DNA from: a virus
Lineage: Duplodnaviria; Heunggongvirae; Uroviricota; Caudoviricetes
IMG/VR virus record: IMGVR_UViG_2703718780_000026
Length of the DNA: 33,331 bases
Reading direction: 5' to 3' (one strand)
This document shows positions 1 to 12,971 of the stretch, piece by piece (position 1 is the first letter of the stretch; every line of letters starts with the position of its first letter). The position numbers and the translations under genes are program-made. A model generated the notes under the pieces. It had not been told where the DNA came from and did no database searches. It saw nothing but the letters and a program-made list of their open reading frames with translations.

Positions 1-981
1 TTATAACGTCACTCCGCCTTTTAGAGGATTCAGCGCGACGGCATTTTGCAGGTAGTCAGGCGCAAGGTGCGCATAGGCCATCGTCTGCTGAATGCTCGCA
101 TGTCCCAGAATCTGTTGCAGTGCGATTATATTGCCCCCATTCATCATGAAATGGCTTGCGAATGTATGCCGCAGGATGTGGGTTGCCTGATTGGGTGGTA
201 TATCTGGCTTCACTCTGCGTAAAATCCCGCAAAACTTCTCATAATCAACTTTGAATAATTTAGCGCTGGCCTCCTCTTTAACTTTTTTCTCCAGTTCCTC
301 AGAAATCGGCACGGTTCGCTTTTTACCGTTTTTGGTTTTCAGGAAGGTAACCCTGCAATTTGTAATCTGTGCTGGTTTTAGCGTGGCAACTTCCGTCCAT
401 CTTCCTCCAGTGCTCAGACATAAAAGTGCGACAAGTAAGTCATCACCAGCCAAAACATTTAACAGTTTTTCGATTTCTGCTTTTTCCAGGAACGTCATTT
501 CAGGGTTGGCCTCCGCCAGTGGCGGCAGTCCGTGAATTGGGTGTTGCCCGGAAAATTCATCCAATTGAATTAATTTTGTGAACATGCCGGATAATCGGTA
601 CATGTCACGGTTTATCGTTGCGGCACTGATACCATCACGTAGTCGCATGGAACGATAATCCATCAAAGCTCTTTTGCTCATCCGGCTCACTGGTATATCA
701 CCTATGCCGCTGATGGTTTTGAGCAGATGATTAAACTCTTTTGTTCCATGCTCGTGGTTTTGCCCGTGATATTTCCACCAGATGTCCAGCAACTCACTCA
801 AAGTTCGGCGATCTGCTCGCTGACCTGCCCATTCTTTCTGGCTGGCGTAGGCGATTGTGTATCGCTCAAATGCTACAGCCTCAGCTTTTCTTTCAAATTT
901 CCTGCGGATGCGTTTTCCGTCGCGACCGCGAGGTCTAATGTCCACTTCATAGCGTCCATCATCGAGCTTCTTAATTGACAT
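1..981 (-). CDS. int: Tyrosine integrase (P2 Int-like)
   Basis: Minus-strand ORF 1-1011; ATG at 981 gives MSIKKLDDGRYEVD..., which matches the P2 Int N-terminus as I recall it, with a GAGGG RBS-like sequence upstream. C-terminal R...HxxR...Y-type region (ATHILRHTFASHF...AYAHL). Sits at the prophage end next to the C repressor. The tracker's start at 1011 is an alternative. Confidence 0.88.
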   Translation of the reverse strand: MSIKKLDDGRYEVDIRPRGRDGKRIRRKFERKAEAVAFERYTIAYASQKEWAGQRADRRTLSELLDIWWKYHGQNHEHGTKEFNHLLKTISGIGDIPVSRMSKRALMDYRSMRLRDGISAATINRDMYRLSGMFTKLIQLDEFSGQHPIHGLPPLAEANPEMTFLEKAEIEKLLNVLAGDDLLVALLCLSTGGRWTEVATLKPAQITNCRVTFLKTKNGKKRTVPISEELEKKVKEEASAKLFKVDYEKFCGILRRVKPDIPPNQATHILRHTFASHFMMNGGNIIALQQILGHASIQQTMAYAHLAPDYLQNAVALNPLKGGVTL

Positions 982-3253: not shown

Positions 3254-3525
3254 GTATTCGTATCGAAATTGGCGAACGTTATGTCGTTACCAGTGACAGC
3301 TTTCAGTTTATTCTCCACGAGAAAAAGAGAGCGGAAAGCGGTAAAAACGCCGGTCAGGAATGGCTGGCGGTGGTTGGTTATTACCCGAAATTAAGCCAGC
3401 TCGTTTCCGGCCTGATGCATCACGATATTCTGACCGGAAGCGCAAAGTCTTTTGCTGATTTAAACGCGCAGGTTGAGCAACTCAGCAAGCGTTGTTCAGA
3501 GGCTTTTGGCTCATATGGCCGTTAA
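3250..3525 (+). CDS. Hypothetical early protein
   Basis: 91-aa ORF immediately upstream of A and overlapping its start. Confidence 0.55.
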   Translation: MSIRIEIGERYVVTSDSFQFILHEKKRAESGKNAGQEWLAVVGYYPKLSQLVSGLMHHDILTGSAKSFADLNAQVEQLSKRCSEAFGSYGR

Positions 3526-5800
3526 AGCCTCCGGGCGTTTTGTCCCTCCGTCAGCATTTGCCGCAGGCACCGGTAAGGCGTTTACCGGTGCTTATGCATG
3601 GAACGCGCCACGCGAGGCTGTCGGGCGCGAAAGACCCCTTACACGTGACGAGATGCGTCAGGTGCAAGGTGTTTTATCCACGATTAACCGCCTGCCTTAC
3701 TTTTTGCGCTCGCTGTTTACTTCACGCTATGACTACATCCGGCGCAATAAAAGCCCGGTGCACGGGTTTTATTTCCTTACATCCACTTTTCAGCGTCGTT
3801 TATGGCCGCGCATTGAGCGTGTGAATCAGCGCCATGAAATGAACACCGACGCGTCGTTGCTGTTTCTGGCAGAGCGTGACCATTATGCGCGCCTGCCTGG
3901 AATGAATGACAAGGAGCTGAAAAAGTTTGCCGCCCGTATCTCATCGCAGCTTTTCATGATGTATGAGGAACTCTGCGATGCATGGGTTGATGCTCATGGC
4001 GAAAAAGAATCGCTGTTTACGGATGAGGCGCAGACTCACCTGTATGGTCATGTTGCTGGCGCTGCACGTGCTTTCAATATTTCCCCGCTCTACTGGAAAA
4101 AATACCGTAAAGGGCAGATGACCACGAGGCAGGCATATTCTGCCATTGCCCGCCTGTTTAACGATGAGTGGTGGACTCATCAGCTTAAAGGCCAGCGTAT
4201 GCGCTGGCATGAGGCGTTACTGATTGCTGTCGGGGAGGTCAATAAAGACCGTTCTCCTTATGCCAGTAAACATGCCATTCGTGATGTGCGTGCGCGCCGC
4301 CAGGCAAATCTGGAATTTCTTAAATCGTGTGACCTTGAAAACAAGGAAACCGGCGAGCGCATCGACCTTATCAGTAAGGTGATGGGCAGTATTTCTAATC
4401 CAGAAATTCGCCGGATGGAGCTGATGAACACCATCGCCGGTATTGAGCGTTACGCCGCCGCAGAGGGTGATGTGGGGATGTTTATCACGCTGACCGCGCC
4501 GTCAAAGTATCACCCGACACGTCAGGTCAGAAAAGGCGAAAGTAAAACCGTCCAGCTAAATCACGGCTGGAACGATGAGGCATTTAATCCAAAGGATGCG
4601 CAGCGTTATCTCTGCCGTATCTGGAGCCTGATGCGCACGGCATTCAAGGATAATGATTTACAGGCCTACGGTTTGCGTGTTGTTGAACCACACCACGACG
4701 GAACGCCGCACTGGCATATGATGCTTTTTTGTAATCCACGCCAGCGTAACCAGATTATTGAAATCATGCGTCGCTATGCGCTCAAAGAGGATGGCGACGA
4801 AAGAGGAGCCGCGCGAAACCGTTTTCAGGCAAAACACCTTAACCGGGGCGGTGCTGCGGGATATATCGCGAAATACATCTCAAAAAACATCGACGGCTAT
4901 GCACTGGATGGTCAGCTCGATAATGATACCGGTAGGCTGCTGAAAGACACTGCAGCGGCTGTTACCGCATGGGCGTCTACGTGGCGCATTCCGCAATTTA
5001 AAACGGTTGGCCTGCCGACAATGGGGGCTTACCGTGAGCTACGCAAATTGCCTCGCGGCGTCAGCATTGCTGATGAGTTTGACGAACGCGTCGAGGCTGC
5101 ACGCGCCGCCGCAGACAGTGGTGATTTTGCGCTGTATATCAGCGCGCAGGGCGGGGCAAATGTCCCGCGCGATTGTCAGACTGTCAGGGTCGCCCGTAGC
5201 CCGTCGGATGACGTTAACGAGTACGAGGAAGAAGTCGAGAGAGTGGTCGGCATTTACGCGCCGCATCTCGGCGCGCGTCATATTCATATCACCAGAACGA
5301 CGGACTGGCGCATTGTGCCGAAAGTTCCGGTCGTTGAGCCTTTGACTTTAAAAAGCGGCATCGCCGCGCCTCGGAGTCCTGTCAATAACTGTGGAAAGCT
5401 CACCGGTAGTGATGCTTCGTTACCGGCTCCCACACCTTCTGAGCACGCTGCAGCAGTGCTAAATCTGGTTGATGACGGTGTTATCGAATGGAATGACCCA
5501 GAGGTCGTGAGGGCGCTCAGGGGAGCATTAAAACACGGTCTGAAAACACCAAATCGTCAGCAAAGAAACGGAAGTCCGTTAAAAACACATGAAATTGAAC
5601 CGTCGGCCAGACTGACCCGGTCGGAACGAATGCAAATCACCCGTATCCGCGTTGACCTTGCTCAGAACGGTATCAGGCCTCAGCGATGGGAGCTTGAGGC
5701 GCTGGCGCGTGGCGCGACCGTAAATTATGACGGGAAAAAATTCACGTATCCGGTCGCTGATGAGTGGCCGGGATTCTCAACAGTAATGGAGTGGACATAA
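3515..5800 (+). CDS. A: Replication initiation endonuclease A (rolling-circle, HUH-type)
   Basis: ATG at 3515 gives 761 aa, the same as P2 gpA. HUH-like motif PHWHMMLF and paired active-site tyrosines YIAKYISK, as in the phiX174 A / P2 A family. Confidence 0.9.
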   Translation: MAVKASGRFVPPSAFAAGTGKAFTGAYAWNAPREAVGRERPLTRDEMRQVQGVLSTINRLPYFLRSLFTSRYDYIRRNKSPVHGFYFLTSTFQRRLWPRIERVNQRHEMNTDASLLFLAERDHYARLPGMNDKELKKFAARISSQLFMMYEELCDAWVDAHGEKESLFTDEAQTHLYGHVAGAARAFNISPLYWKKYRKGQMTTRQAYSAIARLFNDEWWTHQLKGQRMRWHEALLIAVGEVNKDRSPYASKHAIRDVRARRQANLEFLKSCDLENKETGERIDLISKVMGSISNPEIRRMELMNTIAGIERYAAAEGDVGMFITLTAPSKYHPTRQVRKGESKTVQLNHGWNDEAFNPKDAQRYLCRIWSLMRTAFKDNDLQAYGLRVVEPHHDGTPHWHMMLFCNPRQRNQIIEIMRRYALKEDGDERGAARNRFQAKHLNRGGAAGYIAKYISKNIDGYALDGQLDNDTGRLLKDTAAAVTAWASTWRIPQFKTVGLPTMGAYRELRKLPRGVSIADEFDERVEAARAAADSGDFALYISAQGGANVPRDCQTVRVARSPSDDVNEYEEEVERVVGIYAPHLGARHIHITRTTDWRIVPKVPVVEPLTLKSGIAAPRSPVNNCGKLTGSDASLPAPTPSEHAAAVLNLVDDGVIEWNDPEVVRALRGALKHGLKTPNRQQRNGSPLKTHEIEPSARLTRSERMQITRIRVDLAQNGIRPQRWELEALARGATVNYDGKKFTYPVADEWPGFSTVMEWT

Positions 5801-6252
5801 TGGCAAAAATTCACGAGGTAAAGCTGCACGCAAAATATTTCGACCTTGTACTGGAAGGAAAGAAACGCGCAGAGTTTCGGAAAAATGACCGTAATTATGA
5901 GCGCGGGGACACGTTGATTTTGCATGAATGGGTGCAGGGTGTGTTTACGGGGCGCAAGGTTGAAGCCCGGATAACAGATGTTACTGACCTGTCAGACTGG
6001 CTGGAAGATTATGTCTTGCTAAGTATTGAGCTGCTTAATACGGGCGCATATAAGATTGTGAACTGGAAAGAACTTAGTGAACGTGGTTTGGTATTCAGAA
6101 TTAATCATGAAATTATGCATCAGCTTGGCCTTGCTGTTATGTATGAACCAGAGACAGGGATGTCTGGTGGTGCAATGGTTGCCACGGATGGGATATGGAA
6201 TTATTCAGATGAACAGATGGAGCATGCAAAGCAAAACGGGTGGCTTGGATAA
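5800..6252 (+). CDS. ASCH/DUF3850-like protein (tentative)
   Basis: ATG at 5800 overlaps the A stop (TAATG). N-terminus MAKIHEVKLHAKYFDLVLEGKKRAEFRKNDRNYERGDTLILHEW resembles the DUF3850/ASCH consensus as I remember it; needs an HMM check. Confidence 0.5.
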   Translation: MAKIHEVKLHAKYFDLVLEGKKRAEFRKNDRNYERGDTLILHEWVQGVFTGRKVEARITDVTDLSDWLEDYVLLSIELLNTGAYKIVNWKELSERGLVFRINHEIMHQLGLAVMYEPETGMSGGAMVATDGIWNYSDEQMEHAKQNGWLG

Positions 6253-6458
6253 TGCACAGAATACCAGGCGAGATACCGCACCATAAAACTAAAAATATCA
6301 AGCTGATGGCCATTGTTCAGCGTTTACAGCGGATTATGGTCAACGAAAATCTGACGCCCGATGAGCTGGTCGGGTGTGCCGAAATAGTCCGGGATAATTA
6401 CGGGCGGTTTAATCATATCGGTCAATCAAGAGTTACGCCACCACCACGCAGACGATAG
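6252..6458 (+). CDS. Small hypothetical protein
   Basis: ATG at 6252 overlaps the upstream stop (TAATG), suggesting translational coupling. 68 aa, no motif recognised. Confidence 0.4.
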   Translation: MHRIPGEIPHHKTKNIKLMAIVQRLQRIMVNENLTPDELVGCAEIVRDNYGRFNHIGQSRVTPPPRRR

Positions 6459-6763
6459 AGAACGCCGCCAGTCGTGAAACTTGTTTTCAGGGCTGGCGGG
6501 GTTGAACAACGAGCGAAGCGAGGCGTTAGTTATGTAAAGTTAAAGTCATTTAAAACAGTACATTAGTGGAAAGGATGTTGAGAGTATTCGGTTACGAGAG
6601 GGAATGGATGTATTTACAGAAATTGTTGGATTAATTGTAGTAAAGCTAGGCTAGGATAAGGCCTTAGGGCTGGATGTGGGGAGCATTCTTGTTGTTTGCT
6701 AAAACGCTCGAGATTTTTGAAGGATACAGTTATACTCTGTCGGAGGATGAATCGGAGACTAAA

Positions 6764-7801
6764 ATGGCGGTAAAAGTTGTTGATCTTTTTTGTGGTGCTG
6801 GCGGGCTTACTCATGGCTTAAAGCAAGCCGGATTAGATGTAGTCGCTGGTATTGATATAGAGAGTGCATGCCGGGTTGCTTATGAAATTAATAACAGTGC
6901 GCTTTTTATTGAAAAAGATATTTCTCTGGTGACCAAAGACGAGCTTAACGATCTTTTTGAAGGTGCGCAGGTAAGGGTGTTGGCTGGTTGTGCGCCGTGC
7001 CAACCTTTTTCAAGGTATACGCAAGGGCGCGATAAGAAAAATGATAAAAAGTGGCCTCTTCTTTATGAATTTGAACGTTTAATTCGAGGGGTTAATCCAG
7101 AGATCGTTACAATGGAAAATGTACCTGATGTAACGAAGCATTCTGTTTATAGTGACTTCTATAATAGTTTAGAGGCATTGGGTTATCATGTCTGGGCCGG
7201 AAAGGTTGAATGTGTAGATTATGGTGTTCCGCAAAATAGAGTTAGGCATGTATTATTGGCATCTAAATTTGCGCCGCTTTCATTTGTAAAACCAAAAGTA
7301 GAAAAGGCGGTGACGGTAAAAGAATGCATTGGCGGACTTCCTCCATTAAAGGCTGGTCAAACGGATCCTGTTGATCCTTTACATAAAGCAAGTAAATTAA
7401 GTGATATAAATCTAAAACGTATTGCTTGCTCTAAACCAGGAGGGACATGGCGAGACTGGCCAGTAGAGTTGATTGCATCATGCCACATAAAGAAAAGTGG
7501 GCAAGGTTATGCTAGTGTATATGGACGTATGGATTGGGATAAACCAAGTCCTACAATTACTACGCTATGTTATGGTTTTGGAAATGGCAGATTTGGTCAT
7601 CCCGAGCAAAATCGTGCAATTTCTCTGAGAGAGGCTGCATTGTTACAAACGTTTCCAAAGGATTACGTTTTTACTGCACCCAATGAGAAAGTATCTATAA
7701 AGAATGTTGGTAGGATGATTGGTAATGCTGTACCGGTAAAACTAGGTGAGGTTATAGGTGAGTCAATTATAACTCACCTAAAAGAGCACAATATAGTTTA
7801 A
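6764..7801 (+). CDS. DNA (cytosine-5) methyltransferase
   Basis: ATG at 6764 with GGAG RBS 6 nt upstream. C5-MTase motifs read in order: I DLFCGAGG, IV PCQPFS, VI ENV, VIII QNRVR, X GNAV. 345 aa. Confidence 0.9.
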   Translation: MAVKVVDLFCGAGGLTHGLKQAGLDVVAGIDIESACRVAYEINNSALFIEKDISLVTKDELNDLFEGAQVRVLAGCAPCQPFSRYTQGRDKKNDKKWPLLYEFERLIRGVNPEIVTMENVPDVTKHSVYSDFYNSLEALGYHVWAGKVECVDYGVPQNRVRHVLLASKFAPLSFVKPKVEKAVTVKECIGGLPPLKAGQTDPVDPLHKASKLSDINLKRIACSKPGGTWRDWPVELIASCHIKKSGQGYASVYGRMDWDKPSPTITTLCYGFGNGRFGHPEQNRAISLREAALLQTFPKDYVFTAPNEKVSIKNVGRMIGNAVPVKLGEVIGESIITHLKEHNIV

Positions 7802-8529
7802 GCCTGTAGTCTTGATGATCGTATGTATAAGCGATCATCAAGGTATTTTTGTATGTTTTCTAGTATTTCTTCTAGGTAATGGAAAACTTCATTTTTAAGA
7901 AGTTCAAGGTTGTCAATAGACGTTTCTTGACCCTTGTTTAAAAAGGATTCTGAACCATGCGCCAATGCATTTCTTGCTTTTTTTATGTTTACTAAATTTC
8001 CACCATTATGAGTTTTTGAACGATCTGTTTGAGAGGAAAAACCATAGATACTAGCAACATCCCTAATTTTCTGTGCGTCAACATTTCCAGAAAATAGGGG
8101 GTTTTTATCTGCTTGAACTTGTTTTTTGTGTTCCTCTAGCCATTTTTTTAGAACTAGTTTTGCTATATCACCTTGTGAAAAATCCATGTCACTCACCATA
8201 TGATGGTCTAATTTTTTTAAGGCAAGCTTTGTTAAGCTTTCGCAAATTTTATCGACACAAAGATCATCACACGAATTAAGTTCATTATGTATATCTTCAA
8301 TAGCATTAGATATAGTGGCTTCAATTAAGTTATATAATATAATAAACGCATTGGCTTTTAGGATATGCGTCATTTCGATATCAATTTCGCGGTGTTTACA
8401 TTCGCCTGCTATGCGATCTTTGTACGAGAATGTTGGTCTCTCATCAATAATGAATTTAACAAAATCAAAATATTTTTCTATATCTTCTTTTCTTTCAGAA
8501 AATAAAATTTTGCTGTTCATGATGACCAC
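7798..8529 (-). CDS. Hypothetical protein with C-terminal HEPN-like R-N-x3-H motif
   Basis: 243 aa from a GTG at 8529 (RBS GAGGAG 10 nt upstream), or 240 aa from the ATG at 8520. KKARNALAHG matches the HEPN Rx4-6H signature. Its stop codon overlaps the MTase stop (7798-7801 shared, convergent). Confidence 0.6.
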   Translation of the reverse strand: MVIMNSKILFSERKEDIEKYFDFVKFIIDERPTFSYKDRIAGECKHREIDIEMTHILKANAFIILYNLIEATISNAIEDIHNELNSCDDLCVDKICESLTKLALKKLDHHMVSDMDFSQGDIAKLVLKKWLEEHKKQVQADKNPLFSGNVDAQKIRDVASIYGFSSQTDRSKTHNGGNLVNIKKARNALAHGSESFLNKGQETSIDNLELLKNEVFHYLEEILENIQKYLDDRLYIRSSRLQA

Positions 8530-8535
8530 GGATAG

Positions 8536-9660
8536 TTACTCCTCACTATCATCTAGAACAGTATCTTCGGTCTGCACACCTAAAAGTTTGTCTCTTACAT
8601 ATTCAATACGTGCTTTTACTTTAGGTTTTGAATTTGATGCATCAGATCTTGTATGTTTAATAAACTCTTCTGAGTTTAACCATTCCTCTACCGGTGTTGG
8701 TATTATGTTAGAGTCAGTTTTTAAGGCCAAAGTGGAACCGACAGCTAACGCTTCAAAGCGAATTCTTGGTACAGTGTTTGCCGTTGCATTCTTTCTGAAA
8801 CCATAGGGGAAATATGTTTTGACAAATTCACACATATCTTGAAATTGTGCAGTTAGTTTTTCTTCTTGCTCAGGACTAAATGACTCATTGCGTTGGTCAA
8901 GATATTGGGTTAAGAAAGTATCAACACTTTTTTCAAAGTTAAGATAGTTATCACAATAGGCAAAATATCTAAGAACCAATTCTGGATATTCTCCACGACT
9001 GATCCTAGCATCGTTTAGAGGGCATATTTCCCTAAACAATGGAAACTCTGATAGTCTATTAACAACATCAAGAAAAGGCCCATCATTACTGCCCTGTCGT
9101 TGCTCCATTGTCGTGAGTTTTATTCCACCTGTATTCAATCGATCGAAAATCTCCCTTCTTGCTTCTTCATCACATAATTCAGTGAGTTCAATCATTCGAA
9201 TAGTTTTTCTATCGAATCTAAGCTTACGTGCAGGTGTGAAGTCAGAGTATTTGAATCCGTTGGCTGAAGTTAGCTTTTTTAATCCAGTAAGGGTAAATTT
9301 ATCATTTAGGAAATGATAAAGTGTTCTAATCCTCTGGCTACCATCAACGATTTCCAATCGCCCATCGTCATTTCCGATATCGGCGACAAATACATATGGG
9401 ATAGGAATATTTAGCAAAAGAGATTCAATGAATCTTGATTTTTGAACATTGCTCCAAACAAATTCCCTTTGATAATCAGGTATGTATAGTTCTGCTTGGT
9501 CGGTTTCTAATCCTTTCTGAAATTTGTCAACAATGACACTTACAGGAAACTCTCTGATTTGGTGATCCGTTATTTTTTGCATGGATTTGATCTGGTTATC
9601 CAGGTCAACTTTATCTTCTTCTGTGATCACTTGTTCAGGTTGTCTTGGGACTCTTGCCAT
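8536..9660 (-). CDS. DUF262 (ParB/Srx-like) domain protein, standalone (no DUF1524/HNH domain)
   Basis: ATG at 9660 with AGGAG RBS; 374 aa. Motifs IPDYQREFVW and DGSQRIRTL (the DGQQR-type signature) plus C-terminal FDRLNTGGIKLT. First gene of a two-gene operon, 6-nt gap to the downstream gene. Confidence 0.75.
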   Translation of the reverse strand: MARVPRQPEQVITEEDKVDLDNQIKSMQKITDHQIREFPVSVIVDKFQKGLETDQAELYIPDYQREFVWSNVQKSRFIESLLLNIPIPYVFVADIGNDDGRLEIVDGSQRIRTLYHFLNDKFTLTGLKKLTSANGFKYSDFTPARKLRFDRKTIRMIELTELCDEEARREIFDRLNTGGIKLTTMEQRQGSNDGPFLDVVNRLSEFPLFREICPLNDARISRGEYPELVLRYFAYCDNYLNFEKSVDTFLTQYLDQRNESFSPEQEEKLTAQFQDMCEFVKTYFPYGFRKNATANTVPRIRFEALAVGSTLALKTDSNIIPTPVEEWLNSEEFIKHTRSDASNSKPKVKARIEYVRDKLLGVQTEDTVLDDSEE

Positions 9661-9681
9661 TTGTTTTCTCCTTATGCTTAT

Positions 9682-9706
9682 TTGCAATAAGTTGCATTTG
9701 TTTGCA
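9682..9706 (-). promoter_or_regulatory. Three TTGCA motifs at 10-bp phasing in the leader of the DUF262 operon (candidate operator)
   Basis: TTGCA at 9682-9686, 9692-9696 and 9702-9706 on the + strand (TGCAA x3 on the coding strand), between the predicted promoter and the start codon. Confidence 0.3.
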
Positions 9707-9723
9707 TGCGTAGTTTTATACTG

Positions 9724-9752
9724 ATTTAATCCCACAAGTCCTTTACATGCAA
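9724..9752 (-). promoter_or_regulatory. Candidate sigma70 promoter for the DUF262/HEPN-like operon (TTGCAT, 17 nt, TTAAAT on the minus strand)
   Basis: Reverse complement of 9747-9752 is TTGCAT; reverse complement of 9724-9729 is TTAAAT; spacer 17 nt. About 60 nt upstream of the ATG at 9660. Confidence 0.35.
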
Positions 9753-9802
9753 GGGTTAGAGGCTTAAATGCACCTGCATTAAAACCGCCCCACGAAGCGG
9801 GC

Positions 9803-9821
9803 GGGCGAGGCGGGGAAAGCA
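9803..9821. other. cos cohesive-end site (P2/P4-type 19-mer GGCGAGGCGGGGAAAGCAC)
   Basis: The 19-mer matches the P2/P4 cohesive-end sequence as I recall it, and the following sequence (CTGCGCGCTG.CGGTGGTGCTGATT...TTTTTTCAGCGTCT) resembles the P4/P2 left end. Located between the cargo and Q, as expected for an integrated P2. Confidence 0.7.
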
Positions 9822-9964
9822 CTGCGCGCTGGCGGTGGTGCTGATTTTATTTTTTCAGCGTCTGAGCGCGTCGTGATAGCGTTTAGATTGTGCGCCGGGG
9901 CGTTGGTTTGTCTGCGGGCTGTTTTGCGCGGTGGTGAGCGTGTGAGGGCGTGATGACGGGGTGT

Positions 9965-9986
9965 AAAAAAGCCGCCCGCAGGCGGC
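9965..9986 (-). terminator. Rho-independent terminator downstream of Q (minus strand)
   Basis: Minus-strand hairpin GCCGCC-tgcg-GGCGGC followed by TTTTTT, directly after the Q stop. Confidence 0.5.
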
Positions 9987-9991
9987 GATGT

Positions 9992-11026
9992 TCAGCCGTT
10001 GTCAGTGTCCAGTGAGTAGTTTTTAAAGCGGATGACCTCCTGACCGAGCCAGCCGTTTATCTCGCGGATCCTGTCCTGTAACGGGATAAGCTCATTGCGG
10101 ACAAAGACCTTTGCCACTTTCTCAATATCACCCAGCGACCCGACGTTCTCCGGCTTGCCACCCATCAACTGAAAGGGGATGCGGTGTGCGTCCAGCAGGT
10201 CAGCGGCGCTGGCTTTTTTGATATTAAAAAAATCGTCCTTCGTCGCCACTTCACTGAGCGGGATAATTTTAATGCCGTCGGCTTTCCCCTGCGGGGCATA
10301 GAGAAACAGATTTTTAAAGTTATTGCGGCCTTTTGACTTAACCATGTTTTCGCGGAGCATTTCGATATCGTTGCGATCCTGCACGGCATCGGTGACGTAC
10401 ATGATGTATCCGGCATGTGCGCCATTTTCGTAATACTTGCGGCGGAACAGTGTGGCCGACTCATTCAGCCAGGCAGAGTTAAGGGCGCTGAGATATTCCG
10501 GCAGGCCGTACAGCTCCTGATTAATATCCGGCTCCAGCAGGTGAAACACGGAACCGGGCGCGAAGGCTGTCGGCTCGTTGAAGGACGGCACCCACCAGTA
10601 AACATCCTCTTCCACACCACGGCGGGTATATTTTGCCGGTGAGGTTTCCAGTCTGATGACCTTACCGGTGGTGCTGTAACGCTTTTCCAGAAACGCATTA
10701 CCGAACACCAGAAAATCCAGCACAAAGCGGCTGAAATCCTGCTGGGAAAGCCACGGATGCGGGATAAATGTCGAGGCCAGAATATTACGTTTGACGTAAA
10801 TCGGGGAGCTGTGATGCACGGCAGCACGCAGGCTTTTTGCCAGACCGGTAAAGCTGACCGGTGGCTCATACCATCTGCCGTTACTGATGCACTCGACGTA
10901 ATCCAGAATGTCACGGCGGTCGAGTACCGGCACCGGCTCACCAAAGGTGAATGCCTCCATTTTCGGGGCGCTGGCGGTCATTTTTTTTGCCGCAGGTTGC
11001 GGTGTTTTCCCTTTTTTCTTGCTCAT
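9992..11026 (-). CDS. Q: Portal protein (P2 gpQ-like)
   Basis: 344 aa, the same as P2 Q. Adjacent to cos and transcribed toward it; start overlaps the P stop. Confidence 0.88.
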   Translation of the reverse strand: MSKKKGKTPQPAAKKMTASAPKMEAFTFGEPVPVLDRRDILDYVECISNGRWYEPPVSFTGLAKSLRAAVHHSSPIYVKRNILASTFIPHPWLSQQDFSRFVLDFLVFGNAFLEKRYSTTGKVIRLETSPAKYTRRGVEEDVYWWVPSFNEPTAFAPGSVFHLLEPDINQELYGLPEYLSALNSAWLNESATLFRRKYYENGAHAGYIMYVTDAVQDRNDIEMLRENMVKSKGRNNFKNLFLYAPQGKADGIKIIPLSEVATKDDFFNIKKASAADLLDAHRIPFQLMGGKPENVGSLGDIEKVAKVFVRNELIPLQDRIREINGWLGQEVIRFKNYSLDTDNG

Positions 11027-12798
11027 CAGTAAAACTCCAGAATGGTGGATGTCAGCGGGGTGCTGATACCGGCGGTGAGTGGCTCATTTAACAGGGCGTG
11101 CATGGTCGCCCAGGCGAGGTCGGCGTGGCTGGCTTCCTCGCTGCGGCTGGCCTCATAGGTGGCGCTACGTCCGCTGCTGGTCATGGTCTTGCGGATAGCC
11201 ATAAACGAGCTGGTGATGTCGGTGGCGCTGACGTCATATTCCAGACAGCCACGACGGATAACGTCTTTTGCCTTGAGCACCATTGCGGTTTTCATTTCCG
11301 GCGTGTAGCGGATATCGCGCGCGGCGGGATAGAACGAGCGCACGAGCTGGAACACGCCGACACCGAGGCCGGTGGCATCAATACCGATGTATTCGACGTT
11401 GTATTTTTCGGTGAGTTTGCGGATGGATTCAGCCTGAGTGGCAAAGTCCATGCCTTTCCACTGGTGACGCTCAAGTATTCTGAATTTGCCACCGGCCACC
11501 ACCGGCGGTGCCAGCACCACGCATCCGGCGCTGTCGCCACGGTGTGACGGGTCGTAACCAATCCATACCGGGCGGGAGCCGAACGGATTGGCGGCAAACG
11601 GTGCATAGTCTTCCCATTCTTCCAGCGTGTCCACCATGCAGCGTTGCAGCTCCTCGAACGGGAACACCGATGCCTTGTCGTCAACAAATTCACACATGAA
11701 CAGGTTTTTAAAATCGTCGGCGCTGTTTTCGCGTTTGAGCTGCTCAATGTCGAACAGCGTGCAGCCGCCTTTCAGGGCGTCCTCAATGGTGACAATCTGC
11801 CGCCACTGGCCGTCCGCACAGAGAAGCCCACCGGCAAGGGCGTTATGACTGACGTCGATTTCCACGCGTTCGGCGGCGCTGGCGCGTCCCCGGTTAAACA
11901 GTTCACCCGACCAGAACGGGTAGGCGTCGTGCGCCAGCGTGGACGGGGTGGAGAAATAGGTCGAGCGCAGGTGACTCTGTGAGGCCATACCTGATGCCAC
12001 CTTACGCAGTACCTGAAAATTCGGGATCCAGAAAATCTCGTCGACGTACAGGTCGCCGTTATGGCTCTGTGCGGTGTTGGAGTTGGTGCCGAGAAAAATC
12101 AGTTTTGCACCGTTATTGCCCAGGACAATCGGGTCACCGGTCAGGTCAACGTCAACCAGACGGGCAAAGGCGATGATGTATTCGCGGAACACATACGCCT
12201 GCGTTTTACTGGCCGACAGAAAAATCTGGTTATGACCGGTTTTCAGGGCACGCAGCAGCGCCTCGCGGGAAAAATAAAACGTCGCGCCAATCTGGCGGGA
12301 TTTCAGGATATCGCGGATGCGGTGCTCAAGCCCGGCGCGATACCAGTGCAACTGATAGTCGAAAGACTGCTCAAAGAAAATCTGCTCCAGCTTTTCGATA
12401 GCCTCGTCACTGAAAAAATTCTTTTTCGGTTTGCGCCGCCCGCCTTTGTTGCGGTTAGCGACGTTCGGATTAAGGTCTGCCTCGTTGCCGGTCTGGCTGT
12501 AGCGATTTACCCGTGCCAGTCGTTCAATCTGGCGTCCCAGCAGGTCAATTTCCTTGAAGTCACCACCGGTTTTCTGCGGTTTGATGATGAGCTGGGTCAG
12601 CCGCGCTTCCAGGCTCATTTCGACACGGCTGATGGGGGCAACGCTGTCCCAGCCGTCGCGCTGTTTCCAGCTCTGCACCGTCGGGCGTTTCATCTGCAAC
12701 ATGGCGGCAATCTGCGGCACGGAAAATCCCTGCCAGTACAGCAGCGCCGCCTGACGACGCGGGTCGTGTAAAAGAGTGGTGTCTGTGGTGATGGTCAT
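11026..12798 (-). CDS. P: Terminase large (ATPase) subunit (P2 gpP-like)
   Basis: ATG at 12798 (MTITTDTTLL...) with GAGGT RBS; 590 aa, the same as P2 P. The tracker's start at 12828 is a TTG. Confidence 0.88.
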   Translation of the reverse strand: MTITTDTTLLHDPRRQAALLYWQGFSVPQIAAMLQMKRPTVQSWKQRDGWDSVAPISRVEMSLEARLTQLIIKPQKTGGDFKEIDLLGRQIERLARVNRYSQTGNEADLNPNVANRNKGGRRKPKKNFFSDEAIEKLEQIFFEQSFDYQLHWYRAGLEHRIRDILKSRQIGATFYFSREALLRALKTGHNQIFLSASKTQAYVFREYIIAFARLVDVDLTGDPIVLGNNGAKLIFLGTNSNTAQSHNGDLYVDEIFWIPNFQVLRKVASGMASQSHLRSTYFSTPSTLAHDAYPFWSGELFNRGRASAAERVEIDVSHNALAGGLLCADGQWRQIVTIEDALKGGCTLFDIEQLKRENSADDFKNLFMCEFVDDKASVFPFEELQRCMVDTLEEWEDYAPFAANPFGSRPVWIGYDPSHRGDSAGCVVLAPPVVAGGKFRILERHQWKGMDFATQAESIRKLTEKYNVEYIGIDATGLGVGVFQLVRSFYPAARDIRYTPEMKTAMVLKAKDVIRRGCLEYDVSATDITSSFMAIRKTMTSSGRSATYEASRSEEASHADLAWATMHALLNEPLTAGISTPLTSTILEFY

Positions 12799-12971
12799 GA
12801 ATACCTCGCCGTGATGAATACACGGCAAGGCTACTGAGTCGCGCCCCGCGATTCGCTAAGGTGCTGTTGTGTCAGTGATAAGCCATCCGGGACTGATGGC
12901 GGAGGATGCGCATCGTCGGGAAACTGATGCCGACATGTGACTCCTCTAATCACTATTCAGGACTCCTGACA

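Follow-up and report, generated by a model that had tools for sequence, protein, structure and literature searches.

A three-gene cassette of a C5-cytosine methyltransferase and a DUF262-HEPN gene pair in the defence hotspot of a P2-like Escherichia coli prophage

The stretch of viral DNA analysed here (IMG/VR record IMGVR_UViG_2703718780_000026, 33,331 nucleotides (nt), referred to below as the window) comes from Escherichia coli, where it is a prophage of the P2-like (Peduovirus) type. It carries a gene for a C5-cytosine DNA methyltransferase (MTase), which converges tail to tail with two genes of the opposite strand, the first encoding a HEPN protein of the MAE_28990 family and the second a ParB/DUF262 protein (Table 1). 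This three-gene cassette occupies hotspot #1 of the prophage. When the window was compared by blastn with a P2-like prophage carrying different cargo (L136), the alignment extended to position 6531 and resumed at 9767. The GC content of the insert between these breakpoints is 32-43%, as against 50-58% in the P2 backbone outside, and in other P2 prophages unrelated genes stand in its place. The triad thus lies between gpA/orf91 and cos/portal and is exchanged for other cargo in relatives, as expected of cargo of the defence hotspot that has been published for P2-like phages and that holds tin and old in P2 itself (PMC9122126, PMC9519451). The initial annotation of the locus had suggested acquisition as a single cassette, and the exchange of the insert, the shift in GC content and the conservation of the triad across phyla described below bear this out. 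We are highly confident that the three genes of the window belong to one cassette.

The MTase gene begins with an ATG at position 6764, with GGAG upstream at 6753-6756. The alignments of homologues start at residue 1, and PGAP calls the same protein of 345 amino acids (aa; WP_000279422.1). PF00145 matches over aa 4-336 (E 2.3e-54, 185.5 bits, cut-off 22) and TIGR00675, the NCBIfam dcm model, matches with 127.4 bits (cut-off 100.65). Six motifs (I, IV, VI, VIII, IX and X) were located (Table 1), and in an alignment of 75 orthologues all six were invariant or nearly so. The full-length match and the complete motif set identify the protein as a C5-cytosine MTase of the PF00145/Dcm type, in agreement with the initial annotation, which had noted all canonical motifs and considered the enzyme very likely active. 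As judged from the completeness and conservation of the motifs, the MTase is probably active. Its target motif is not predictable from the best PADLOC models, which were generic (DrmMII, MTase_II), and the PDB sequence search gave matches to the core domain only (3g7u, E 9e-21; M.HaeIII, DNMT1, M.HhaI), from which no specificity can be inferred.

A divergent allele of the MTase gene (L001:2433-3479, L002:3068-4115) contains a run of seven G residues. In phage P24B2 the run has eight, which is the sole difference in 1,048 nt and splits the annotated MTase gene; this could be a sequencing error or the result of slipped-strand on/off switching. We dropped the argument that phage P24B2 shows the MTase to be dispensable, since one extra G in such a run is indistinguishable from a sequencing error.

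The HEPN protein matches PF18737 (MAE_28990) with an E value of 1.2e-19. Its Rx4H motif reads RNALAH (aa 183-188, nt 7957-7974), in which R183, N184 and H188 do not vary among 23 homologues. No PADLOC model matched this protein at E up to 10. It is presumed to be a ribonuclease (RNase) effector. The DUF262 protein (374 aa) matches PF03235 (GmrSD_N; E 1.1e-28) and contains the sequences QREFVW (aa 64-69) and DGSQR (aa 106-110), which conform to the QRxxxW and DGxQR motifs. Among the PADLOC models NsnA matches over the full length (2.7e-55) and PD-T4-2_A with 6.6e-34. The protein is presumed to be a sensor and nucleoside triphosphatase (NTPase), consisting of a ParB-DUF262 domain and a C-terminal DNA-binding domain; a ParB-DUF262 NTPase joined to a DNA-binding domain is the published description of NsnA-type proteins (PMC12065111). 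The catalytic motifs of both partner proteins are conserved. Pfam detected no DUF1524 domain in it or in its neighbours, and the PADLOC matches to SspE and HEC-05/06 were short and confined to the N-terminal part. Sequence searches at E up to 1 found no solved structure for the DUF262 protein or for the HEPN family profile. For the question whether a restriction endonuclease lies next to the MTase, Pfam, NCBIfam and PADLOC assigned the two neighbours to DUF262 and HEPN only, and the sole match of an REase_II model (3.3e-08) falls on the DUF262 domain. The initial annotation had stated that no cognate restriction endonuclease was evident. This view needs to be revised, because the adjacent ParB/DUF262 and HEPN genes are conserved partners of the MTase in an operon type that has already been described (PMC3710099, Table 1 of that paper).

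Operons combining a MAE_28990 HEPN domain, a ParB nuclease and a DNA methylase were listed by Anantharaman et al. in 2013 (their Table 1, PMC3710099), who proposed that HEPN RNases linked to restriction-modification (R-M) systems form a second defence layer, in the manner of PrrC (PMC3710099). The window cassette has the same three adjacent domains (PF18737 HEPN with the Rx4H motif, ParB/DUF262 and DNA methylase), and it shares with these operons an Rx4-6H HEPN and the adjacency of ParB-fold and methylase genes across taxa. The family was named after cyanobacterial genes, and most of the genome loci found here are cyanobacterial. Unlike those operons, which are known from comparative genomics only, the present copy sits in the hotspot of a P2-like coliphage, and the tail-to-tail geometry and the embedded hairpin described below are new relative to the 2013 description. 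The triad is also included in the supplementary table of P2-encoded loci of Rousset et al. 2022 (PMC9122126), with the same domains, in the same hotspot and in E. coli P2-like prophages, but with other accessions (WP_000351260, WP_001697730, WP_000373633). The cassette type is therefore already known: it was described by comparative genomics in 2013 and catalogued in the P2 hotspot in 2022. The term DUF262 was not found in the supplementary file of Rousset et al. on tested systems (PMC9122126), and the triad is absent from that file. In the literature we found no experimental work on the C5-MTase triad.

Table 1. Coordinates of the cassette genes, their sequence features and the flanking phage genes in the window
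Feature	Nucleotide position	Amino acid position	Strand	Basis or remark
gpA replication endonuclease, left border of hotspot	3473-5800		+	
DUF3850/ASCH protein, left flank	5764-6252		+	
Small open reading frame	6240-6458		+	
Variable hotspot insert with all three cassette genes	6532-9766		strand-less	blastn breakpoints, GC drop
Candidate weak sigma-70-like promoter for MTase, TCGAGA-17-TATACT	6708-6736		+	consensus scan, 9/12 matches; promoter-like sites no commoner than in shuffled sequence
C5-cytosine DNA MTase, 345 aa	6764-7801		+	PF00145, TIGR00675, motifs I, IV, VI, VIII, IX, X
MTase motif I, FCGAGG	6788-6805	9-14		
MTase motif IV, GCAPCQPFS, with catalytic Cys (C79)	6986-7012	75-83 (PCQ at 78-80)	+	
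MTase motif VI, ENV		118-120		
MTase motif VIII, QNRVR		157-161		
MTase motif IX, REAALLQTFP		289-298		
MTase motif X, GNAVP		320-324		
Second hairpin, in MTase 3' end	7757-7783			no T-run on either strand; pairs broken in some alleles
TTAA common to both convergent stop codons	7798-7801			
MAE_28990-family HEPN protein, 240 aa	7798-8520		-	PF18737, Rx4H motif
Terminator-like hairpin (14 pairs) then ATTTTTGT, in HEPN 3' coding end	7809-7844		+	terminator scan
ParB/DUF262 protein, 374 aa, NsnA-like	8536-9660		-	PF03235, PADLOC NsnA
Portal protein (gpQ), right border of hotspot	9992-11026		-	
Terminase	11026-12828		-	

To see how widespread the triad is, we ran a HEPN protein profile against one genome from each species, which gave 79 loci, and surveyed viral contigs, which gave another 53. 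In 42 of the 79 genome loci a full-length orthologous MTase, 51-81% identical to that of the window, lies directly beyond the HEPN gene and the DUF262 gene directly upstream of it; the hosts include Buttiauxella, Kluyvera, Thalassotalea, one Cytophagales genome, Candidatus Parabeggiatoa and many cyanobacteria. The orthologous MTase is present in 46 of the 53 viral loci. As to the other seven, four end after the HEPN gene at the end of the contig, two have a different C5-MTase and one has no MTase. The two loci with a different enzyme (IMG/VR, L120:363-3165 and L121:575-3323) encode a non-orthologous C5-MTase (30% identity, PF00145 9e-52), located upstream of the DUF262-HEPN pair and co-directional with it. 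In them C5 methylation has become associated with the pair a second time and independently. The triad also occurs in the Moraxella catarrhalis prophages Mcat24-32 and, in the same hotspot, in P2-like prophages of Klebsiella aerogenes and Citrobacter amalonaticus. Among 5,426 complete E. coli genomes, 2,161 matched the hotspot flanks and seven contained the triad: in four of them the cassette is at least 96% identical to that of the window, and three carry the same three genes as a copy of about 78% identity.

Among the triad loci the identity of the MTase to the window copy ranges from 50 to 81%. Since unrelated C5-MTases are only about 30% identical, this range identifies a single orthologous lineage, one that has remained associated with the pair. 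In pairwise comparisons the identities of the MTase correlate with those of either partner with a Pearson r of 0.82, those of DUF262 and HEPN with each other with 0.95; the Spearman coefficient for the MTase and its partners is only about 0.42. Mean pairwise identity is highest for the MTase (61%), followed by DUF262 (56%) and HEPN (43%). The variable region of the MTase is as conserved as the catalytic core, which suggests that the entire MTase family may recognise one target sequence. All deep branches of the HEPN tree have the MTase. The triad travels as one unit across several phyla.

The MTase stop codon TAA (7799-7801) and the HEPN stop codon on the minus strand (7798-7800) share the sequence TTAA, in accordance with the 4-nt overlap reported in the initial annotation. 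We compared 90 related loci containing both genes. The two genes are convergent in 87 of them and overlap in 54, in 35 by exactly 4 nt; the overlap reads TTAA in 25 loci, CTAA in four, CTAG in four and TTAG in two. It must be noted that the 90 loci share ancestry, so that the 35 cases stand for one geometry that was conserved, not for as many separate events. The 4-nt overlap was seen in E. coli, Klebsiella, Citrobacter, Moraxella and many cyanobacterial genera. Gap lengths at the junction lie between -89 and +39 nt; all but four of the convergent gaps are 39 nt or shorter. In five loci (L079, L118, L120, L121, L122) the MTase gene is upstream and co-directional, therefore convergence is not obligatory. 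The tail-to-tail arrangement is ancestral to the cassette, and the 4-nt overlap is old and recurrent.

It was initially concluded that the overlap leaves no room for terminators and that transcription of the two units must collide or be coordinated. Neither conclusion is supported by the analysis of the junction. A terminator-like hairpin followed by ATTTTTGT lies within the 3' coding end of the HEPN gene, starting 8 nt past the MTase stop codon, and relatives with a gap of 27-30 nt have a canonical bidirectional terminator there (AAAAAAAGCCTGC...GCAGGCTTTTT). The predicted folding energy of the hairpin is -18.3 kcal/mol (z -3.9), and none of 200 shuffled sequences folded as well. The stem is kept in six sequences, which represent four enterobacterial alleles with HEPN identity down to 66%, and shows two compensatory pairs. 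Several pairs have become G-U, which would turn into A-C mismatches on the HEPN-sense RNA, therefore the hairpin is strand-specific and probably acts in the MTase-sense transcript. In its simplest reading, which is supported but not proven, the hairpin is a terminator or a 3' stabiliser of the MTase transcript; in the other alleles a weaker T-run is present, and the lineages compared were only four. We also considered the second hairpin, in the 3' end of the MTase gene, as a terminator of the HEPN transcript, and ruled it out because it lacks a T-run and its pairs are broken in relatives. The terminator scan of the minus strand found nothing terminator-like near the HEPN stop codon, the nearest weak site being at 6939-6923, and it is possible that the DUF262-HEPN transcript reads antisense into the MTase gene.

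Such antisense reading is at the core of an idea that goes back to the initial annotation, namely that collision of the polymerases or pairing of the complementary 3' ends is the main link between methylation and the toxic pair. The frequency of overlaps among the related loci and the lack of a terminator-like site near the HEPN stop codon, which may allow the DUF262-HEPN mRNA to enter the MTase gene, speak for it. We nevertheless consider it highly improbable. The conserved, strand-specific hairpin and T-run stand right after the MTase stop codon, relatives with a longer gap use a bidirectional terminator, and the variable gaps together with the five co-directional loci imply that function survives without the overlap. 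Moreover, among the convergent overlaps of compact prokaryotic genomes the 4-nt YTAR class is the most frequent.

On the basis of these sequence comparisons we propose, with moderate confidence, that the triad is an R-M-like system with an RNase effector, in which the MTase would be the modification module. In the lysogen the MTase would place 5-methylcytosine (5mC) on one sequence motif of host and prophage DNA as a self mark. The DUF262 protein, which combines a nucleoside triphosphate-binding ParB fold with a DNA-binding C-terminal domain and has no DUF1524/HNH nuclease, would read the methylation state of DNA. Unmarked incoming DNA would lead it to license the HEPN RNase, and cleavage of RNA, possibly alongside DNA nicking of the ParB type, would stop the infection. 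The overall logic would be that of restriction-modification with an abortive-infection effector. A role for DUF262 as a modification sensor has precedents in SspE and GmrSD, and NsnA has been interpreted as a sensor (PMC12065111). The genes would form two separate transcription units: MTase transcripts would probably end at the hairpin at 7809-7844, and the DUF262-HEPN transcript, starting about 100 nt from cos, may run antisense into the MTase 3' end. The overlap of the stop codons would have resulted from compaction, without being needed for regulation. We tentatively extend this proposal to methylation-gated RNA-targeting immunity, an extension that we regard as possible but doubtful: with a 5mC self mark written by a dedicated and unusually conserved MTase, a nuclease-less ParB/DUF262 reader and an HEPN RNase read-out instead of DNA cleavage, autonomous pairs of the PD-T4-2 kind would arise repeatedly by loss of the MTase.

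Several observations weigh against this proposal. The MTase is missing from 37 of the 79 genome loci, all of them cyanobacterial, and these loci fall at five to eight or more separate places of the HEPN tree. In about 20 species the DUF262 and HEPN genes are intact with their catalytic motifs kept, and housekeeping genes occupy the neighbourhood without an adjacent MTase, therefore the pair cannot be strictly lethal where no MTase lies next to it. Repeated loss of the MTase with retention of an intact pair makes strict dependence less likely. PD-T4-2, which also consists of DUF262 and HEPN, protects E. coli K-12 without any MTase (PMC9519451), and characterised DUF262 proteins mostly recognise modified and not unmodified DNA (PMC10952713). 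Finally, in phage PhiR44_1 a 58%-identical MTase is found with a paraMORC partner, and the MTase is therefore modular. The initial annotation had named homologous cassettes that routinely lack the MTase as a sign of independence of the two units. This expectation was borne out only in part, in the 37 genome loci without the MTase; 42 of the 79 genome loci and 46 of the 53 viral loci do have it.

The neighbours in the loci without MTase include ABC1 kinase, acetyl-CoA synthetase and phosphopantetheinyl transferase genes. It did not appear that another MTase had taken over in these loci: the N4/N6 MTase of L044 belongs to a complete BamHI-type system, and other such loci are flanked by housekeeping genes. 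In a Microcoleus clade that lost the MTase (L035, L045, L046, L051, L065, L071, L072, L077, L078 and others) the DUF262 gene is about 177 codons long and mostly without the DGxQR motif, and the HEPN gene is intact with an RNxLAH motif. Truncation of DUF262 is what the loss of a protective methylase would select for, a pattern that the other lineages do not show.

Much of the foregoing bears on the alternative that the cassette consists of two independent modules travelling together, the DUF262-HEPN pair being an autonomous abortive or type-IV-like defence, and the MTase serving the phage itself, either by protecting P2 and host DNA from the restriction systems of other hosts or as an orphan epigenetic enzyme. 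The intact pairs without MTase in about 20 cyanobacterial species, the efficacy of PD-T4-2 on its own in K-12, the location of the MTase in its own, oppositely oriented transcription unit with a terminator-like hairpin, the different partner of its close relative in PhiR44_1 and the low Spearman coefficient would all fit such independence. Against it, the genes are adjacent across phyla, including chromosomal, non-phage contexts in which an anti-restriction role for a phage would make no sense, and among viral loci that allow an assessment essentially all have the MTase. The recruitment of a non-orthologous C5-MTase by the same pair (L120, L121) and the truncation of DUF262 in the Microcoleus clade that lost the MTase are also difficult to reconcile with it. 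On balance we regard independence of the modules as unlikely.

It is instructive to compare the triad with characterised defence systems. GmrSD, BrxU and SspE share with it the DUF262 NTPase domain with the QRxxxW and DGxQR motifs, and that of SspE is coupled to a DNA-modification module. The triad differs from them in lacking a DUF1524 HNH nuclease domain and in that its modification would be 5mC and not phosphorothioate. Type IV restriction of the GmrSD type, which combines DUF262 with a DUF1524 His-Me nuclease, was therefore rejected as a classification. The likeness to SspE raises the alternative that the DUF262 protein binds the 5mC self marks made by its own MTase, and that the mark is an activating or anchoring cofactor which tunes the NTPase and the HEPN protein, with no hunt for unmethylated sites. 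In the SspABCD-SspE system the DUF262 domain senses the self phosphorothioate, which stimulates the NTPase (PMC10952713, PMC12065111), known DUF262 proteins read modified bases, and the MTase, its variable region included, is more conserved than either partner. We think this arrangement improbable, as intact pairs persist without the MTase, and the SspE-type DUF1524 nickase was absent from the triad in the Pfam and PADLOC searches.

PD-T4-2 has been validated as an anti-T4 defence in ECOR65, its native strain (Vassallo et al. 2022, PMC9519451). Like the triad it pairs DUF262 with HEPN, and its PD-T4-2_A model matches the triad DUF262 protein, if more weakly than NsnA does. It differs in having two genes and no MTase, in its HEPN domain of the RiboL-PSP type and in the length of the locus (1.5 kb vs 2.9 kb here). 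The triad was not assigned to PD-T4-2: the A model matches, but no PADLOC model matches the HEPN protein at E up to 10, and there is a third gene. PD-lambda-5, which consists of a ParB/HEPN protein and a methylase, has also been validated and protects broadly; its authors describe it as a "compacted prophage RM+Abi" system, and its assay required an mrr-negative host (PMC9519451). It resembles the triad in the presence of a ParB domain, an HEPN-like region and a DNA MTase, but its ParBc and HEPN parts are fused in a protein of about 500 aa, and its MTase is Dam-like (PF02086) and not a C5 enzyme. The two resemble each other in function and are not sequence relatives.

Menshen (NsnABC) has in common with the triad the ParB-DUF262 and ParBDB domains, and its NsnA model matches the DUF262 protein over the full length. 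In the triad, however, the NsnB ATPase and the NsnC effector are missing, and HEPN and MTase genes are present instead. As only an NsnA-like protein is there, with HEPN and MTase genes as neighbours, membership in Menshen was rejected. With classical Type II R-M systems with convergent genes the triad shares a dedicated C5-MTase arranged tail to tail with conserved partners in a mobile unit of a defence hotspot. Unlike those systems, the triad contains no recognised endonuclease fold, its presumed effector is an RNase, and intact pairs occur without a nearby MTase in many lineages. The triad was not classified as a classical Type II R-M system, since Pfam, NCBIfam and PADLOC gave no endonuclease of recognised fold beside the MTase.

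A temperate phage that carries a methylase alters the epigenetic state of its own progeny and of each lysogen, and thereby which DNA can enter or leave the strain. If the methylase serves as self-marker for the DUF262-HEPN pair, the cassette would be a compact and tractable E. coli model of how ParB/DUF262 proteins read DNA modification, and also of how DNA-level discrimination between self and non-self is wired to an RNase. It would then account for the existence of both kinds of DUF262-HEPN pair, those accompanied by a methylase and those, such as PD-T4-2, that lack one. Methylation-gated RNA targeting would mean that there is a widespread R-M system whose "restriction" is abortive RNA cleavage. 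If the modules are independent, the triad would be merely another combination of cargo in a well-known hotspot.

Two of the loci without MTase, L010 (6688-6996) and L041 (6779-6982), contain a partial second copy of the C-terminal half of HEPN just downstream of the intact HEPN gene, at the usual place of the MTase. In L044 (6758-8345) the BamHI-type R-M system, consisting of the N4/N6 MTase and a BamHI-family endonuclease, abuts the DUF262-HEPN pair, and together they make up a small defence island.

At the right side of the insert the window contains, read directly on the plus strand at 9804-9822, the 19-nt sequence GGCGAGGCGGGGAAAGCAC, which we take to be P2 cos, the cohesive end. The three cassette genes would therefore lie at the extreme right end of the virion genome. 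The start codon of the DUF262 gene is 144 nt from this end, thus the defence operon would be transcribed inward from the right end. On the left side, directly 3' of the small open reading frame at 6240-6458, there is a GC-rich inverted repeat (6461-6503) with 19-nt arms, 84% complementary, that lacks a T-run. The P2 early operon may end at this repeat, which may also shield the MTase gene from read-through. An Rfam search over 6200-10100 gave no family at its threshold.

Related MTases were observed with other partners in the same hotspot. In Escherichia phage PhiR44_1 (L138, 4004-7052) the 58%-identical MTase is convergent with a paraMORC3 protein, and in the P2-like Yersinia phage P37 (L139, 3001-6046) a 40%-identical C5-MTase is followed by a 670-aa hypothetical protein. 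An MTase with a variable partner is thus a recurring cargo of the P2-like hotspot.

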